Origin: an uncultured Clostridia bacterium
Lineage (GTDB): Bacteria > Bacillota > Clostridia > TANB77 > CAG-508
Reading direction: 5' to 3'
DNA: 64,000 nt
Assembly (NCBI GenBank): GCA_934168305.1
Contig: CAKPNF010000002.1
Span: 32,308-96,307 of the forward strand
Below are positions 637 to 37,071 of this stretch, piece after piece. Under the pieces are notes generated by a model that did no database searches, was not told where the DNA came from, and saw only the letters and a list, made by a program, of their open reading frames with translations. Numbering within the stretch: position 1 is the first letter of the stretch; every line of letters starts with the position of its first letter. The position numbers and the translations under genes were made by a program.

Positions 637-1235
637 TTATAAAATATTGGTATTAATTCTGTATAAAAAGTATTTAAAAGATAATACTATTGATACAAAA
701 TTAATTAAGAAAAGTAAAGAAAATGTGAAACAAAATTAGTAAAAAAATATAAAAATGTTTCACATTTGAAATAACCCTTAAGATTAAAATCTTAGGGGTT
801 ATTTTTGGCTTTAAACTTATATTAAATATGAATAAAAATGTCACAGAACTACATAGATTTATCATGTGATGAATTATGGAAAAATGAGAATTTTTCTCTA
901 CTCATCTTTAAATTTTCACGTATTTTTCTAATTATTTATCCAATTTTAATATTATCTTGCATAAATAATTCTTCTAAAAACTCAAAAATATTATATTAAA
1001 AAAGCAAAAACAGACTAATATGAAAAAAGCATAAATGTTTTTAAAAAAGTATTGCAAAAATAATAAAGGTTTAGTAAAATTTATACATAATATAATTTAT
1101 ATTTTTTGCAAATAAAGAACTTTGAGAAGTGAATAATTCCTAGGTATGTAATGTGAAATTATAATTAAAAGTATATTATTTGTAAAAATATAAATAATAG
1201 TATTTTATATATAATAATAAAGGGGGAAAGATTTA

Positions 1236-2438
1236 ATGCAAAAAACAAATAACAAAAAAGTTATAACATTAGTAGCGTTAGTAATTACTATAATAATATT
1301 ATTAATAGTGGCAGCTATATCAATACAAGCATTAACAGGAAGTAGATTATTCGGCAAATCACATATTACAAATGTAAATACATCAGAAACAAATCCAGTA
1401 GGAGCAATGCCAAAAGGAGCAACAGTAATAGAAGGAGATGCTAATAAAGGAATAGTAATAAAAGACAGTAATGATAATGAATGGGTATGGGTAGAAGTAC
1501 CAAAGACCGAAACAGAAGGGAAAACAAAAGATAAAGATATAGAAGAAGCATTACAAAAATATGCAGGAGATTATAGAAAGAACTGGACAGATGATAAATG
1601 GTATGCAATAGATGGAGATAAATTGGTAACAGCAAGTACAGATAATTTAACAACAGAGCAAAAGGCATTAAAAAATGGATGTGGTTTAACATATGATGAA
1701 TATAATACAGCAAAAAGTAAAATATTACAGAGTATAAAGACAAATGGAGGATTCTGGATATCAAGATATGAAGCAGGGATAGCTGGAACCAATACAGATG
1801 CAACAAGTGATGAGATACCAAATGTAAGATATTCACATAGGGATATAACAAAAGATTCACCAAAGGCGGTTAGCCAAGCAGACAGAATACCATATAATTA
1901 TGTATATTGTAGTGAAGCACAAACATTAGCATCAGCAATGTCAACAGATTCAAATAAAACAAGTAGTTTATTGTTTGGAATCCAATGGGATTTAACATGT
2001 AAATTTATAGAAACGAAAACAAATCTTACAACAGCAGATATAAAAAAAGATAGTGCAAGTTGGGGAAATTACAGAAATAGTTCAATAACACTAACAAGAG
2101 GAAGATACAATGTATCTCCATCAAGTTCATCAAGTGTATGGAAAAAATTTGATGTAAATACAGATAATGTAACAGGTTCACAAACATCAGATAATATAAA
2201 TTATAATCAATTATTAACGACAGGGGCATCAGAGCAAACAAATAAAATGAATATATATGATTTTGCAGGAAATGTGTGGGAATGGACATTAGAGAAACCT
2301 TCCGGCGCAAGTTATCCTTGTGCTCTTAGGGGAGGGAGCTTTGACAGAAATGGTTCTGACCTTCCAGCGTCTGGCTGCATCGACGAAGATAATACCTTCG
2401 GTTACTCCTACATTGGTTTCCGCTCCACACTTTATTAG
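1236..2438 (+). CDS. membrane-anchored protein with C-terminal FGE-sulfatase/SUMF1-like (C-type lectin fold) domain
   Basis: SD-like aaagggggaaag upstream of the ATG. N-terminal K-rich segment then a 23-residue hydrophobic helix (type II anchor). C-terminus GNVWEWT...RGGSFDRNG...GYSYIGFRS matches the GNxWEW / RGGS / GFR signature of the FGE-sulfatase fold. The last ~150 nt are ~50% GC in a 28% GC gene. Confidence 0.6.
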   Translation: MQKTNNKKVITLVALVITIIILLIVAAISIQALTGSRLFGKSHITNVNTSETNPVGAMPKGATVIEGDANKGIVIKDSNDNEWVWVEVPKTETEGKTKDKDIEEALQKYAGDYRKNWTDDKWYAIDGDKLVTASTDNLTTEQKALKNGCGLTYDEYNTAKSKILQSIKTNGGFWISRYEAGIAGTNTDATSDEIPNVRYSHRDITKDSPKAVSQADRIPYNYVYCSEAQTLASAMSTDSNKTSSLLFGIQWDLTCKFIETKTNLTTADIKKDSASWGNYRNSSITLTRGRYNVSPSSSSSVWKKFDVNTDNVTGSQTSDNINYNQLLTTGASEQTNKMNIYDFAGNVWEWTLEKPSGASYPCALRGGSFDRNGSDLPASGCIDEDNTFGYSYIGFRSTLY

Positions 2439-2846
2439 TAGTAGGTCTGAATGCTAAAATCGTAAAATTAAATATATATCAAAAGTAGTTTTAGAATTCG
2501 TTTTTAGAAAGGATGAATTCTAACGAATGAAATACGTTAGAGGTAAAATTTATTATATTTCAAGAGTTATTATAAGTTCATATGGATATGTGTATTTATA
2601 ATAACCTTAGAAAATTAGAAATTTTCACCTAAGCGATAGCGCCACCTAAGCAGTGGTGCTATTTTACTTTTAGGCAAAAATAATGTCACCAAATAAGAAA
2701 AAAGTGATGAGCCAGATAAAAACGAAAATGAAAGTAATATATCAATAGCACAGCAAATAGCAAACAATCCAAAGGCATATTATGGAAAAAAAGTAGAGAA
2801 TTATAAAGTTAGTGATAGTGATACAAATATATATAGAATATTCTAC

Positions 2847-3557
2847 GTGAGTACAGCAAATAATGAATTTGGAGACCCACAATATACAATATATTTAAAA
2901 GCTGACTGTTCTAAAAGCATTTCTTGTTCAACTACATATGATTCAGCAAATACAAAAGTAAGAACAATGAATCCACAATGGAATAAAGGAGAAACATCAT
3001 CATCAAATACAAAAACAAGAGGAGATAATGAAAGCAATTGGAACACAAACGAAAAAGCAGCAGCGTATTTATGCTCTCCAGTAAATGACACAACATATTC
3101 AAATACAAAATTACCATGGAAAGAATATTATAATTCTGAAAAAGCAAAATATGTTATTGGTGGACCTAGTGTAGAAATGTATGTAAAGTCATATAATCAA
3201 GCATATGAGGGAATAACTGATATTAATACTTATATCTTAGGAGCAAAGTATAGAGCAACAAATAAACCAGGGTATATTTATACATTAAATGGAACACAAT
3301 CACTAATATCAAAAGATGATTATTACACAGGAACTGATAGTTTAGATTATACAAAATATAATAGTATGTATTATGGAAATAATGGAAAGAAAACAGGAAA
3401 TTGGTGGTTAGCTTCTCCATCAGCTAATAATTCTATACGTGTATGTTATGCTGGAGGAGAAAAAGCACATTTAAGTTTATATGATTATAATATAGAAGTT
3501 GGACTTTCTCCTCTAATAGCATTAAACTCAAGTTTTATTCCACAAATTGAAGAGTAA
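2847..3557 (+). CDS. hypothetical protein with a degenerate FGE-like C-terminus; start uncertain, possible truncated paralog or pseudogene
   Basis: Only start is a GTG at 2847. The frame is open without any ATG back to 2697. A 21-codon ATG ORF in the +1 frame (2683..2748) overlaps its 5' end. C-terminus GNWWLASPS...RVCYAGG...GLSP loosely parallels GNVWEWT...RGGS...GFR of the upstream gene. Normal AT-rich composition throughout. Confidence 0.35.
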   Translation: MSTANNEFGDPQYTIYLKADCSKSISCSTTYDSANTKVRTMNPQWNKGETSSSNTKTRGDNESNWNTNEKAAAYLCSPVNDTTYSNTKLPWKEYYNSEKAKYVIGGPSVEMYVKSYNQAYEGITDINTYILGAKYRATNKPGYIYTLNGTQSLISKDDYYTGTDSLDYTKYNSMYYGNNGKKTGNWWLASPSANNSIRVCYAGGEKAHLSLYDYNIEVGLSPLIALNSSFIPQIEE

Positions 3558-3648
3558 AATACATTAAACTTTATAAAAAAGCCTTGTGCTTTTTTTATTT
3601 TACCTATATAATAAATACAGCAAAGAGCAAGGAGGGAGAAAAAACAAC

Positions 3649-4650
3649 ATGAATTTTATAGAAACAATAAAAGAACGAGCAAGACAAGAAATAAAAACAA
3701 TTGTACTTCCAGAAGCAGAAGATATAAGAACACTAAAAGCAACTGAAACAGCATTAAAGGAAAAATATGCAAATATAATTTTAGTAGGAAACAAAGAAAA
3801 AATATTAGAAATTGCCAAAAGTAACAATTTAAACATTGAAGGAGCAGAAATAATAGAACCACAAACATCTACAAACTACGAAAAATATGCAAATTTATTA
3901 TATGAATTAAGAAAACATAAAGGGATGACACTAGAACAAGCAAAAAAAATATCATTAGACCCTGTGTATTTTGGTATGTTAATGGTAAAAGATGAAGAAA
4001 CAAAAGCAGACGGACTAGTTTCAGGTGCTGTGCATTCAACAGCTGATACATTAAGACCAGCACTACAAATATTAAAAACAGCACCTGACACAAAATTAGT
4101 TTCAGCATTTTTTGTAATGGTAGTACCAGAATGTGAATATGGTTCAAATGGTACATTTATATTTGGAGATGCAGGTCTAAATGCAAACCCAAATCCAGAA
4201 GAATTGTCAGAAATAGCAATATCATCAAGTAAAAGCTTTAAGAAATTAGTTGGAGAAGAACCAAAGGTTGCAATGCTATCATATTCAACATACGGAAGTG
4301 CGAAATCTGAATTAACAGAAAAGGTTATTGAAGCAACAAAATTGTTAAAAGAAAAAGAACCAGAATTAAAATCAGACGGAGAATTACAACTAGATGCAGC
4401 AATAATACCAGAAGTAGCAAAATCAAAAGCACCAGGAAGTAATGTAGCAGGAGAGGCCAATGTATTAATATTTCCAAATTTAGATGCAGGAAATATAGGC
4501 TATAAATTAGTACAAAGATTAGCAAAAGCTGAAGCATATGGACCATTGTGTCAAGGAATTGCAAAACCAGTAAACGATTTATCAAGAGGATGTAGCTATC
4601 AAGATATTGCTGGAGTAATAGCAATTACAGCTGTTCAAGCTCAAAAATAA
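3649..4650 (+). CDS. pta: phosphate acetyltransferase
   Basis: SD caaggaggg 8 nt before the ATG at 3649. Protein MNFIETIKERARQ...SGAVHSTADTLRPALQ...ANVLIFPNLDAGNIGYKL... is a canonical Pta. The annotated ORF start at 3586 is an upstream artefact. Confidence 0.9.
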   Translation: MNFIETIKERARQEIKTIVLPEAEDIRTLKATETALKEKYANIILVGNKEKILEIAKSNNLNIEGAEIIEPQTSTNYEKYANLLYELRKHKGMTLEQAKKISLDPVYFGMLMVKDEETKADGLVSGAVHSTADTLRPALQILKTAPDTKLVSAFFVMVVPECEYGSNGTFIFGDAGLNANPNPEELSEIAISSSKSFKKLVGEEPKVAMLSYSTYGSAKSELTEKVIEATKLLKEKEPELKSDGELQLDAAIIPEVAKSKAPGSNVAGEANVLIFPNLDAGNIGYKLVQRLAKAEAYGPLCQGIAKPVNDLSRGCSYQDIAGVIAITAVQAQK

Positions 4651-4704
4651 ACCAATGGGGACGTTCTTAAATTGGTTGAAAAAGACAAAAAAAGGAGGAA
4701 TTTT

Positions 4705-5898
4705 ATGAAAATTTTAGTCTTAAACTCAGGAAGTTCATCACTTAAATATCAAGTAATTGATATGGAAACAGAAGAAATGCTTGTAAAAGGATATTTTGAA
4801 AGAATAGGTCAACAAAATTCTTTTTTAACTCATAAAGTGAATGGAATTAAACATAAATTTGAAAAACATGTAGAAAATCATGAACAAGCATTAGAATTTG
4901 TCTTTACAAGATTAACAAATGACCATTATGGAGTTTTAAAAAGTTTAGATGAATTGGGTGGAATAGGGCATAGAGTTGTTCAAGGTGGAGAAAAATATTC
5001 ACAGCCAGTAATAATTACAGAAGAAGTTATAGAAGAAATAAAAAGATGTAGTGATTTAGCTCCATTACATAATCCGGCAGCAATTTTGGGGATAAATGCT
5101 TGTAAAAAAATAGCACCAAATATTCCAATGGTTGCAGTATTTGATACAGCATTTCATCAAACAATTCCAAAGGAAAGATATATTTACCCAATACCATATG
5201 AATATTATAAAAAATATGGAATTAGAAAATATGGAGCACACGGAACATCACATCAATATGTAGCATATAGAGTTGCTGAGATATTAGGAAAAGATATTAA
5301 AGATTTAAAAATAGTAAATTGCCATTTAGGTCAAGGTGCAAGTGTATGTGCAATTCAAAATGGTAAATCTGTAGAAACAAGTATGGGACTTACACCACTA
5401 GGTGGGATACCAATGGGAACAAGAAGCGGAGATTTGGACCCATCAGTAGTAACATACATAATGAAAAAAGAAAATCTAACACCGCAAGAAATAGAAGATA
5501 TATTAAACAAAAAATCAGGAGTTTATGGAGCGTCTAGAGGAGTATCAGTAGATTTTAGAGACATAGAAAACGAAGCATTAGCAGGAGGAACACATGCTCA
5601 ATTAGCTTTGGATATATATCATTATTTAACAGCATCGTATGTTGCAAAATGTGCAGTAGCTATGGGAGGAATTGATGTACTTACATTTACTGCAGGTGTT
5701 GGAGAAAAAGGACCAATATCAAGAAAAGCTATATGCGACCAACTTGCATTCTTTGGAGTAAAAATAGATGATGAAAAAAATAAAATAAGAGGCGAAGAAG
5801 TTGAAATTTCAGCTGAAGACTCAAATGTAAAAATCTATGTTATTCCAACAAATGAGGAGTTAATGATTGCAAGAGAAACTAAGAATTTAGTCAAATAA
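4705..5898 (+). CDS. ackA: acetate kinase (copy 1)
   Basis: SD aaaaggagga precedes MKILVLNSGSSSLKYQ. Motifs HRVVQGG, DTAFHQT, KYGAHGTSH. Confidence 0.9.
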   Translation: MKILVLNSGSSSLKYQVIDMETEEMLVKGYFERIGQQNSFLTHKVNGIKHKFEKHVENHEQALEFVFTRLTNDHYGVLKSLDELGGIGHRVVQGGEKYSQPVIITEEVIEEIKRCSDLAPLHNPAAILGINACKKIAPNIPMVAVFDTAFHQTIPKERYIYPIPYEYYKKYGIRKYGAHGTSHQYVAYRVAEILGKDIKDLKIVNCHLGQGASVCAIQNGKSVETSMGLTPLGGIPMGTRSGDLDPSVVTYIMKKENLTPQEIEDILNKKSGVYGASRGVSVDFRDIENEALAGGTHAQLALDIYHYLTASYVAKCAVAMGGIDVLTFTAGVGEKGPISRKAICDQLAFFGVKIDDEKNKIRGEEVEISAEDSNVKIYVIPTNEELMIARETKNLVK

Positions 5899-5902
5899 AT
5901 GA

Positions 5903-6001
5903 GGGATTAAGGGGCCACCACACAAAATCCCTCTTAAAATAAAAAGAAATATAATATATAAATAAAAAAAGAGGGATTTTGTGTGGTGGCCCCTTAATCC
6001 C
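5903..6001. repeat. GC-rich palindromic element copy 1: 33-bp perfect inverted arms (GGGATTAAGGGGCCACCACACAAAATCCCTCTT) around a 33-bp AT core
   Basis: Arms at 5903-5935 and 5969-6001 are exact reverse complements. A T-run follows. Sits between the ackA1 stop and the ackA2 SD, so it probably acts as an intrinsic terminator or stable stem-loop. Confidence 0.85.
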
Positions 6002-6023: not shown

Positions 6024-7214
6024 ATGAAAATATTAGTATTAAATTGTGGTAGTTCATCACTAAAGTATCAATTAATAAACATGGATACAGAAGAAGTAAT
6101 GGCTTCTGGAAAATATGAAAGAATAGGAGAAGCAGAAGCATTTATAACACACAAAGTAAATGGACAAAAAATAGAAATAAAAAATCCAGCATATAATCAC
6201 TCAGAAGCAATTGATTTTACATTAAAACAATTTACAAATCCAGAATATAAAGTAATAGATAGTTTAGACGAAATAAATGCAATTGGACACAGATTAGTTC
6301 ATGGTGGAGAAAAAATTGCGGAATCTGTTGTAATCGACGACAATGTTGTAAAAGTATTAGAAGAATATACAGACTTAGCACCTTTACACAACCCTGCTTG
6401 TATATTAGGAATAAAGGCATGTCAAGAAGTTATGCCTGGAAAACCAATGGTAGGTGTATTTGATACAGCATTCCATCAAACAATGCCAAAGGATAAATTT
6501 ATTTATCCAATACCATATGAATATTATAAAAAATATGGAGTAAGAAAATATGGATTCCATGGAACATCACATATGTTTGTATCACAAAGACTTGCTGAAA
6601 TTGAAAACAAATCATTAGAAGGTACAAAAATTGTAACATGTCACTTAGGACAAGGCTCAAGTATATGTGCTATAAAAGACGGAAAATCTGTAGATACAAG
6701 TATGGGATTAACACCACTTGGTGGACTTCCAATGGTTACAAGAAGTGGAGATTTAGACCCATCAGTTGTAACATATATAATGAAAAAAGAAAACTTAACA
6801 CCTGCACAAATGGAAGATTTATTAAATAAAAAATCAGGACTTTCTGGTATGTCAGGATTAGTTCCAGACTTTAGAGAAATTGAAATCGCTTCAAATGAAG
6901 GACAACCAGATGCTAAAATGGCAGTTGAAAACTTCAATTACACAATTGCAAGTTATGTTGCAAAATATGCAGTTGCAATGAATGGTGTTGATTACATTAT
7001 ATTTACAGGTGGAATTGGTGAAAATCAAATTAATATCCGTAAAGGAATATGTGAAAAATTAGAGTTTATGGGTGTTAAATTAGATGTTGACGCTAATAAT
7101 ATGAGAGGTGAAGAGAAAGTTATTTCTACACCAGATTCTAAAATTAAAGTTTATGTAATTCCTACAAATGAGGAATTAATGATAGCAAAAGAAACTTTGA
7201 GATTAACAAAATAA
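6024..7214 (+). CDS. ackA: acetate kinase (copy 2, tandem paralog)
   Basis: SD aaggag precedes MKILVLNCGSSSLKYQL. Same motif set (HRLVHGG, DTAFHQT, KYGFHGTSH). Roughly 60% identical to copy 1 by eye. Confidence 0.9.
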   Translation: MKILVLNCGSSSLKYQLINMDTEEVMASGKYERIGEAEAFITHKVNGQKIEIKNPAYNHSEAIDFTLKQFTNPEYKVIDSLDEINAIGHRLVHGGEKIAESVVIDDNVVKVLEEYTDLAPLHNPACILGIKACQEVMPGKPMVGVFDTAFHQTMPKDKFIYPIPYEYYKKYGVRKYGFHGTSHMFVSQRLAEIENKSLEGTKIVTCHLGQGSSICAIKDGKSVDTSMGLTPLGGLPMVTRSGDLDPSVVTYIMKKENLTPAQMEDLLNKKSGLSGMSGLVPDFREIEIASNEGQPDAKMAVENFNYTIASYVAKYAVAMNGVDYIIFTGGIGENQINIRKGICEKLEFMGVKLDVDANNMRGEEKVISTPDSKIKVYVIPTNEELMIAKETLRLTK

Positions 7215-36417: not shown

Positions 36418-37071
36418 ATGTATAACGAAACATATGATGACTACATAAGAAGTATTTTAGGATATCCACCAATGAGGTCATATGAAGATGATTTCGCAGA
36501 TTATAGAAATCAAAATATGATGAATTCAAATATGAATATAAATTCAATGAATACAGCATCAAATATGGATTTAGAAAATTGTTATCCTGAGATATACAAA
36601 ATTGTTTATCCAATGGTACAGAAAAAATGCGACAGTGTTGGAACATCTGTATCAAATGATGATATACAAAATATGACAAATGAAATATATTTTGCTTTAG
36701 AGGGAAGAGCAGAAGTTCAACTTAACATCAATTTAGAAAACGAAGTAAGAAAATCGGAAACAACAAATTCAAATACAACTAAAATATCAGAAAAAAAACC
36801 AAATGTAAAAATAAGTGAAACATCAAATGAAAAAAGAGAAACAAGGCAAATAAACACAGGACTTAGGGATTTGATACAAATATTATTAATTAGAGAATTA
36901 TTAAGGAGAAGGAGACCAGGCGAAAGACCAGGAAGACCACCTATGCCACGTCCTCCAATGCCAGGACCTCGACCACCAATGAGACCACCTTTTAGACCGG
37001 GATTTGGACCAGGAGGAACAATGTTTAATAGGGATTTTGAAATATCAAATTATGATATTTATGAAAACTAA
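36418..37071 (+). CDS. hypothetical protein with a Pro-rich repetitive C-terminus (possible spore coat/structural protein)
   Basis: SD gagggagg. C-terminal RPGERPGRPPMPRPPMPGPRPPMRPPFRPGFGPGG tract. Confidence 0.35.
   Translation: MYNETYDDYIRSILGYPPMRSYEDDFADYRNQNMMNSNMNINSMNTASNMDLENCYPEIYKIVYPMVQKKCDSVGTSVSNDDIQNMTNEIYFALEGRAEVQLNINLENEVRKSETTNSNTTKISEKKPNVKISETSNEKRETRQINTGLRDLIQILLIRELLRRRRPGERPGRPPMPRPPMPGPRPPMRPPFRPGFGPGGTMFNRDFEISNYDIYEN

Follow-up and report, generated by a model that had tools for sequence, protein, structure and literature searches.

The GC-rich 3′ end of a C-type-lectin-fold gene in an uncultured Clostridia bacterium is very probably the variable region of a diversity-generating retroelement target

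The DNA analyzed here (hereafter the window) is a 64-kb stretch of contig CAKPNF010000002.1 from an uncultured Clostridia bacterium, which carries near its left end a gene for a protein with a pilin-like N-terminus and a C-terminal domain of the C-type-lectin/FGE fold (Table 1). A first-pass annotation, made from the letters alone, had described this coding sequence (1236-2438, 400 aa) and its RGGSF...GFRSTLY end as we find them, and had proposed that its GC-rich last 150 nt or so are the variable region of a diversity-generating retroelement (DGR) target. In DGRs, a reverse transcriptase (RT) copies a template with errors at adenines. The compositional anomaly was confirmed, with a GC fraction of 0.481 at 2285-2438 compared to 0.267 across the window. 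When all 154-nt windows were scanned, the peak of 0.50 was reached only within 2247-2464, the 99.9th percentile being 0.4675, while the adenine fraction falls to 0.21 in 2295-2434 from 0.46 across the remaining gene. Codons with a share below 0.15 of their synonymous family account for 20 of the 50 codons in 2286-2435 but for 7.4% of a background built from the 35 long open reading frames (ORFs) of the window; the proposed use of rare codons thus stands, except that CCG, listed among them, is absent. The sole other stretch with a GC fraction of at least 0.45 in such windows, 36854-37064 (up to 0.47), codes for a low-complexity Pro/Gly/Arg-rich peptide (RRPGERPGRPPMPRPPMPGPRPPMRPPFRPGFGPGG), whose amino-acid composition accounts for its high GC. 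A structured RNA was considered as a source of the GC peak at the gene end, and an Rfam scan of the whole window at gathering thresholds, together with a scan of 2000-3000 at permissive E-values, found nothing relevant.

The last ~46 codons of the gene can be aligned, one by one, with a non-coding template repeat (TR) on a closely related contig, L092, where the TR lies beside genes for bAvd and RT. The search for a near-copy next to such genes, which the first-pass annotation had suggested, therefore succeeded in a relative and not in the window itself. The TR-matching segment, 2296-2434, almost exactly coincides with the 2285-2438 proposed from composition. Within this variable region (VR), the window differs from the TR at 25 of 51 template adenines and at 7 of 88 other positions (Fisher p=9e-8 for the concentration at adenines), so that 26 adenine and 81 non-adenine positions are kept; the adenines were exchanged for G in 12 cases, for T in 9, and for C in 4. 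This distribution indicates that the segment was written from the L092 TR or a near-identical one, and DGR authorship of the window VR is well supported. Outside adenines, 6 of the 7 differences are GC-to-AT changes, or 5 of 6 when a fixed position near the VR end is set aside, a bias that ordinary mutation would produce where the genome is AT-rich. Compared to the TRs of 4 other loci (L003, L018, L035, and L066), the window VR has 19-28 non-adenine mismatches; these TRs belong to more distant lineages, and comparison with them understates how well the VR matches a template.

The L092 contig (26.8% GC) presents a complete cassette in the order disA and a peptidylprolyl isomerase gene, target, 115-aa ORF, bAvd, RT, TR, and pyrG. 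Its target protein (P0002) is the closest non-allelic relative of the window protein, at 79% identity. A second contig, L093, is identical to L092 over their 9-kb overlap and has the same gene order. The cassette also recurs in L094, from a third sample; over 2,059 nt it shows 1 mismatch there and its TR is unchanged, but the VR next to it is another one. Since the VRs of L092 and L094 differ beside a near-identical cassette, the DGR of this lineage has been active recently. Relative to the L092 TR, the cassette-adjacent VR of L092 is changed at 19/51 template adenines and 1/88 other positions (the fixed position only) and that of L094 at 13/51 and 2/88. Further VRs of the lineage show 17/51 and 4/88 (L009), 17/51 and 12/88 (L007, a paralog with the same sample and coverage as L001, a contig carrying the window locus), and 22/51 and 21/88 (L008). 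No RT of an annotated phage exceeds 40% identity to the cassette RT (P0248). Upstream of disA, L092 2203-4422 contains an IS200-type Y1 transposase gene followed by RadA-like (Rad51/DnaB_C) and ChlI/Lon_C gene calls; the latter 2 resemble pieces of one radA-like gene that has been split.

The similarity to the cassette locus reaches well beyond the VR, as window 990-2702 is homologous to L092 6407-8249. It begins ~245 nt before the start codon, with 95-96% identity over 1001-1200, continues through the gene (86.7% identical; 1364-2702 aligns with L092 6895-8249), and runs ~265 nt past the stop codon. Beyond ~2703, the accessory ORF, bAvd, RT, and TR follow in L092 and L094. The match of the window to L098, a further contig bearing the target gene, stops at 2705 and resumes at 3256, L098 lacking 2706-3255. 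As the homology ends where the cassette genes begin, the window contains a dispersed copy of a complete target unit without the retroelement genes. An ORF directly at the unit edge (2697-3557) is open from 2697 with a first start codon, GTG, at 2847, and looks N-terminally truncated; L098 has only a 103-aa ORF at that place, and there is no Pfam or NCBIfam match.

Table 1. Coordinates of the target unit in the window and of the related template repeat.
Feature	Position	Strand	Basis or remark
Upstream region, presumed promoter, common to the cassette-linked paralog locus L092	990..1235	+	990-1351 matches L092 6407-6768 at 89.8%
Sigma-70-like site	1052-1080		Consensus match only
Target gene, 400 aa	1236..2438	+	Pilin-like N-terminal hydrophobic helix, middle domain, C-terminal C-type-lectin/FGE-fold domain
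Pilin-like N-terminal alpha-helix / membrane anchor, aa 9-35	1260..1340	+	Predicted model, PDB profile match, sequence comparison
Variable region (VR), TR-homologous stretch	2296..2434	+	Comparison with L092 TR
IMH-like 3′ end of VR, TTCCGCTCCACACTTTA	2418..2434	+	Same in all lineage VRs
Conserved post-stop motif CTGAATGCTAAAATCGT	2447..2463	+	Found after VR stops in L092, L094, L009, L066
Hairpin, TTAGAATTC / GAATTCTAA	2491-2523	+	DNA fold
Hairpin, TCTAACG, loop AATGAAATA, CGTTAGA	2519-2541	+	DNA fold; overlaps hairpin 2491-2523
Terminator-like hairpin and T run	2635..2665	+	Terminator scan, 11-pair stem; kept in L092, L094
Right-hand boundary of target unit	2703..2705	.	Similarity to cassette loci and L098 stops
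Template repeat (TR), non-coding	L092 9969-10107		Just after bAvd and DGR-type RT

The end of the VR is similar to an initiation of mutagenic homology (IMH) element: every VR has CTTTA (CACACTTTA) where the TR has CTCTA (CACACTCTA), which amounts to one fixed change (137 C>T). Judged from sequence, the unit would thus possess both an IMH-type end that differs from the TR end and a hairpin downstream of it. The post-stop motif recurs in a related form, CTGAAAGCTAAAGCCGT, in the L003 and CAKPOI01 loci, and the loop AATGAAATA of the second hairpin is conserved downstream of the VRs in distant lineages (L003, L035, L018, L020, and L027 among others), where the stems have changed in a compensatory way. 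The overlapping hairpins at 2491-2541 are candidates for the hairpin by which a DGR recognizes its target. A non-coding module with 2 hairpins within ~110 nt after the VR stop was also noted to be near-identical in at least 12 dispersed paralogs (L003, L020, L024, L027, L035, L050, L055, and others), the coding regions of which are only 40-80% identical; it is either a functional target-recognition element or has been homogenized by gene conversion.

The high GC of the gene end is intrinsic to the TR/VR module. All host loci carrying the module, cassette loci included, have 24-29% GC. The 4 TRs found first have 41-45% GC and 36-38% A, with 67-72% G+C at their non-adenine positions compared to 48% for the window as a whole; they are GC-rich because their scaffold codons avoid adenine and use G/C at non-adenine positions. 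Cassette-adjacent VRs reach 49-55% GC with 20-26% A, and the window VR, at 49% GC and 21% A, falls among them. Adenine depletion by mutagenesis, to which the first-pass annotation had attributed the GC excess, hence explains only a part of it: A-to-N writing adds 5-10 points, the template by itself accounts for roughly two-thirds of the excess, and the remaining third stems from writing. The VR of L053 (10892-10986) has an adenine fraction of 0.38 and is TR-like, as if it had never been diversified.

At the protein level, the assignment to an FGE-sulfatase-like fold holds for the structure, as predicted, and less so for the family. The Pfam profile FGE-sulfatase (PF03781) covers residues 318-353 only, at E 5e-4 and 20.2 bits, below its cut-off of 23.3 bits, and is matched at E<0.01 by 6 of 17 relatives; the relation is fold-level. 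The C-terminal fold was confirmed structurally, the best structural matches being DGR variable proteins, and the VR occupies the C-terminus of this C-type-lectin (FGE-type) fold, in support of the placement originally proposed, with mismatches almost only at template adenines. At the other end, the predicted structure has a helix at residues 9-35, the family profile matches pilin N-termini in PDB (geopilin, E 1.4e-4), and 9 of 17 family members match Pfam N_methyl. However, the canonical E at +5 is replaced by A throughout the family, and the window protein additionally has V at -1 (KKV|ITL) where its relatives have G (KG|ITL). Furthermore, ~42 codons of a helical linker present in P0002 and most relatives are missing from window 1236-1390. 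The window copy may thus not be processed or assembled like its paralogs. Judged from its family, the protein would be a surface or pilus-associated ligand-binding protein with the VR as its binding face.

The window protein belongs to a large family, with more than 4,950 relatives at E<=1e-3; its own 90% cluster holds 2 sequences only. The closest relatives share 70-80% identity upstream of RGGSF, while their last ~35 residues are scrambled at particular positions within a constant scaffold, RGGSF..PAS..TT..(G/S)FRSTLY. When GTDB species representatives were scanned with the protein as a guide, 78 loci were recovered, all from metagenome-assembled genomes (MAGs) of uncultured gut Clostridia (human, mouse, and rabbit), with at least 19 loci in CAKPOI01 and at least 14 in another MAG. 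The best of these matches is 56% identical to the window protein, and the species of the window is therefore not among the representatives. Among the GTDB loci fetched, an RT is present at only 4, in all of which the TR directly follows it. At L003, for example, bAvd, an RVT_1 reverse transcriptase, and a TR of 140 nt come after a family member with 47% identity, and 25 of the 29 TR-to-VR mismatches fall on TR adenines. In CAKPOI01, the cassette-adjacent VRs have 17/53 and 20/50 adenines changed relative to their own TR, with 1/87 and 3/90 changes elsewhere, whereas dispersed paralogs show 6-32 non-adenine mismatches to the TR, which suggests that many copies are not being rewritten by the TRs seen. 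This MAG has 2 cassettes (L018 and L035), whose TRs differ at 14/140 nt; the RT ORF of L018 is shorter (~260 aa) and possibly a pseudogene. Similarly, a bAvd-like ORF downstream of the target at L013 (4745-5029), beside which no RT was detected, is possibly what is left of a decayed cassette.

Exchange among paralogs is extensive as well. L007 and L008 represent a second paralog locus, between NFACT and DUF2207 genes, with flanks that differ by ~0.4%. Their target alleles differ at 191/1320 nt, the neighboring DUF2207 gene is also a divergence hot spot, and whole alleles rather than VRs alone are exchanged there. In other paralogs, identical VR peptides recur in proteins whose upstream parts differ, and these VRs thus behave as stable alleles.

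The VR of the window locus appears static in the haplotypes at hand. The window is identical to contig L002 over the 12.4 kb shared, and L001 differs from it by 34 mismatches in 12.4 kb but encodes an identical protein, the 2 differences within the gene being synonymous, and agrees in its VR-to-TR mismatch counts. A third haplotype, L098, retrieved through its protein P0001, shows no difference in 2296-2434, even though a tract of 13 mismatches lies within 1501-1600, inside the gene. The strain-to-strain hypervariability of the 3′ end that had been predicted was consequently not seen here, in 3 distinguishable haplotypes; it was seen for the cassette-adjacent VR, between L092 and L094. Present activity at the window locus was not observed, and we consider it rather doubtful. 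The surroundings are less stable than the VR: compared over 1-770 and 3256-5913, spoIIIAH is 88% identical between L098 and the window and pta/ackA 99.8%, and the interval from spoIIIAH to the target contains 2 insertions in L098, a gene with a Fic domain and an ORF of 330 aa. The neighborhood of the target is a recombination hot spot. Downstream of pta, the window contains 2 tandem acetate kinase genes (4672-5898 and 6024-7214) with ~71% nucleotide identity.

Taken as a whole, window 2296-2434 is very probably the variable region of a DGR target. The TR would have undergone adenine-mutagenic reverse transcription, after which the VR would have been replaced by the cDNA. We infer that a TR almost the same as that of L092 served to write the window copy, be it in trans or prior to the duplication that placed the unit here, and that this copy may now be rewritten rarely or never. 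The latter, less firm part follows from the identity of the VR in 3 haplotypes and from its 6 non-adenine differences, 5 of them GC-to-AT. The window unit is one of many dispersed copies in these genomes.

Several observations weigh against this interpretation. The TR belongs to a related genome: the RT P0248 occurs only in ERZ27242371, ERZ28616638, and ERZ28564360, which do not overlap with the samples containing the window gene (ERZ27287477, ERZ15610132, and ERZ27287876). Neither a TR nor an RT was found in the 64-kb window, as the first-pass annotation had stated; scans detected no near-copy of 2285-2438 elsewhere in it, no ORF of at least 100 aa with a Y/F-x-DD motif, no paralog of the target gene, and no TR-flank motif, and no TR or RT could be tied to samples of this organism. 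The L003 RT, used as a query, gave 2,878 matches, none on a contig attributable to this organism, the neighboring gene pta retrieved the same few assemblies only, and the locus of another relative, P0003, is also without a cassette. DNA patterns of the VR scaffold had no match in GTDB representative genomes, IMG/VR, or JGI metagenomes; the lineage TR with either base at the 6 discordant positions had none in JGI or IMG/VR, collections from which the lineage is absent, so that this result is uninformative for the genome in question. Moreover, at non-adenine sites the window VR has diverged from the TR (6/87 or 6.9%, without the IMH position) to an extent similar to that by which the surrounding unit differs from L092 (9-13% within the gene and ~9% downstream), and a T>C change at position 65 is common to the window, L007, and L008. 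The 6 differences may therefore reflect a slightly different TR in this genome rather than decay. Finally, the static appearance of the locus rests on few haplotypes, from approximately 6 assemblies of the organism, and on consensus sequences instead of reads.

Some of these points feed an alternative, namely that the window unit is a fully active remote target, rewritten in trans from a cassette elsewhere in the genome whose TR differs at 6 positions, with the assemblies sharing one dominant variant. The shared change at position 65 would then mark a lineage-specific TR variant, and the unit retains an intact IMH-like end, post-stop motif, hairpins, and terminator, with ~91-94% identity to the cassette-adjacent ones. 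The recent activity evident from L092 and L094 fits as well, DGRs can act far from their cassette (Wu et al. 2018, PMC5758913), and a cassette could be missed in these assemblies, as cassette contigs are typically short. However, the VR is the same in 3 haplotypes that differ elsewhere, VR peptides recur as stable alleles across mosaic paralogs, the non-adenine differences are biased toward GC-to-AT, and the N-terminus looks degenerate (G-to-V at -1, linker deletion). Furthermore, no RT more than 92.3% identical to P0248 was present among the matches listed, the nearest other one among them (P0245) comes from an unrelated sample, and the 90% cluster of P0248 has a single member, found in 3 unrelated samples. 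We therefore regard continued rewriting in trans as unlikely, though far from negligible. Much less probable are 2 readings that dispense with a retroelement. An origin of the segment by recombination with a higher-GC donor, the alternative raised in the first-pass annotation, would fit the abrupt shift in composition at the 3′ end of the gene and the mosaic, recombining nature of target genes (191/1320 nt between L007 and L008 within flanks differing by ~0.4%), but such a donor is unnecessary, because every genome bearing the module, cassette loci included, is equally AT-rich, and horizontal transfer does not predict differences concentrated at the adenines of a non-coding repeat beside an RT; this reading is effectively refuted. 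The same holds to nearly the same degree for purifying selection on an FGE/C-type-lectin scaffold combined with diversifying selection and gene conversion among paralogs. Recombination among paralogs is indeed extensive, and third codon positions vary too among the lineage VRs (21/46), yet selection on the protein leaves unexplained why synonymous scaffold positions agree with a non-coding TR, why the scrambling falls exactly on template adenines, and why a non-coding post-stop module is conserved and shared with cassette-adjacent VRs; this explanation is highly improbable.

Beyond the single locus, a two-tier system that diversifies the pilin-like adhesins of these low-GC gut Clostridia is conceivable, in which 1-2 chromosomal DGR cassettes write new binding tips, while whole units repeatedly duplicate, disperse over the chromosome (at least 19 loci in one MAG), cease to be rewritten, and recombine into an archive of frozen variants. 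We put this forward tentatively, as a possibility with more doubt than support. If it were true, the window copy would be one archived unit, and the DGR would act as a generator of paralog diversity in addition to being a single-locus hypermutator.

Among known systems, the DGR of Treponema denticola (TvpA and 7 scattered related targets) is similar in being chromosomal and in having several dispersed targets of the FGE-type C-type-lectin fold; no DGR surveyed by Wu et al. 2018 (PMC5758913) had more than its 7 non-adjacent targets. In contrast, the targets described here have a pilin-like N-terminal helix instead of a lipoprotein signal, their family is much larger (at least 19 loci in one MAG compared to 7 remote targets), and non-adenine mismatches to the TR are frequent in many of the dispersed copies. 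The DGR of Bordetella phage BPP-1 has the same set of components (Mtd, bAvd, Brt, TR, IMH, and hairpin), but the cassette here resides in a chromosomal housekeeping context rather than a phage, its TR follows the RT instead of lying between avd and RT, and the window copy is without an adjacent cassette. The variable protein TaqVP of Thermus aquaticus (PDB 5vf4) shares only 13% sequence identity; its source belongs to another phylum, and it lacks a pilin-like N-terminus. In Bacteroides gut commensals, DGRs are reported to diversify type V pilus adhesins (bioRxiv 10.1101/2024.11.15.621889), which likewise involves gut commensals and pilus-associated adhesive proteins, although in another phylum and with a type V pilus rather than a type IV pilin-like N-terminus. 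PilB of Streptococcus sanguinis (PMC8179133) has the same architecture of an N-terminal pilin helix with a grafted C-terminal binding module. It differs in that no DGR is involved there, while here the E at +5 is absent family-wide, the window copy also lacks the G at -1, and pilin processing is only putative. No link between DGRs and type IV pilin-like proteins was found in the literature searched, the Bacteroides type V pilus work being the nearest.

The window locus is a DGR target of an established type, correctly inferred from composition alone. A GC-rich, adenine-poor gene end in an AT-rich genome can thus flag a DGR VR without a nearby retroelement, and this compositional anomaly can be used as a signal when searching for DGR targets that are orphan or remote. 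The analysis further reveals a very large, DGR-linked family of pilin-like C-type-lectin proteins in uncultured gut Clostridia, with as many as ~20 dispersed loci in a genome; most dispersed copies have lost a perfect match to the template. If its members are surface adhesins, the family would be a candidate for what determines binding to hosts or glycans in this abundant uncultured gut lineage. It would also offer a natural system for studying the frequency with which DGR targets undergo writing in trans, duplication, and subsequent freezing.
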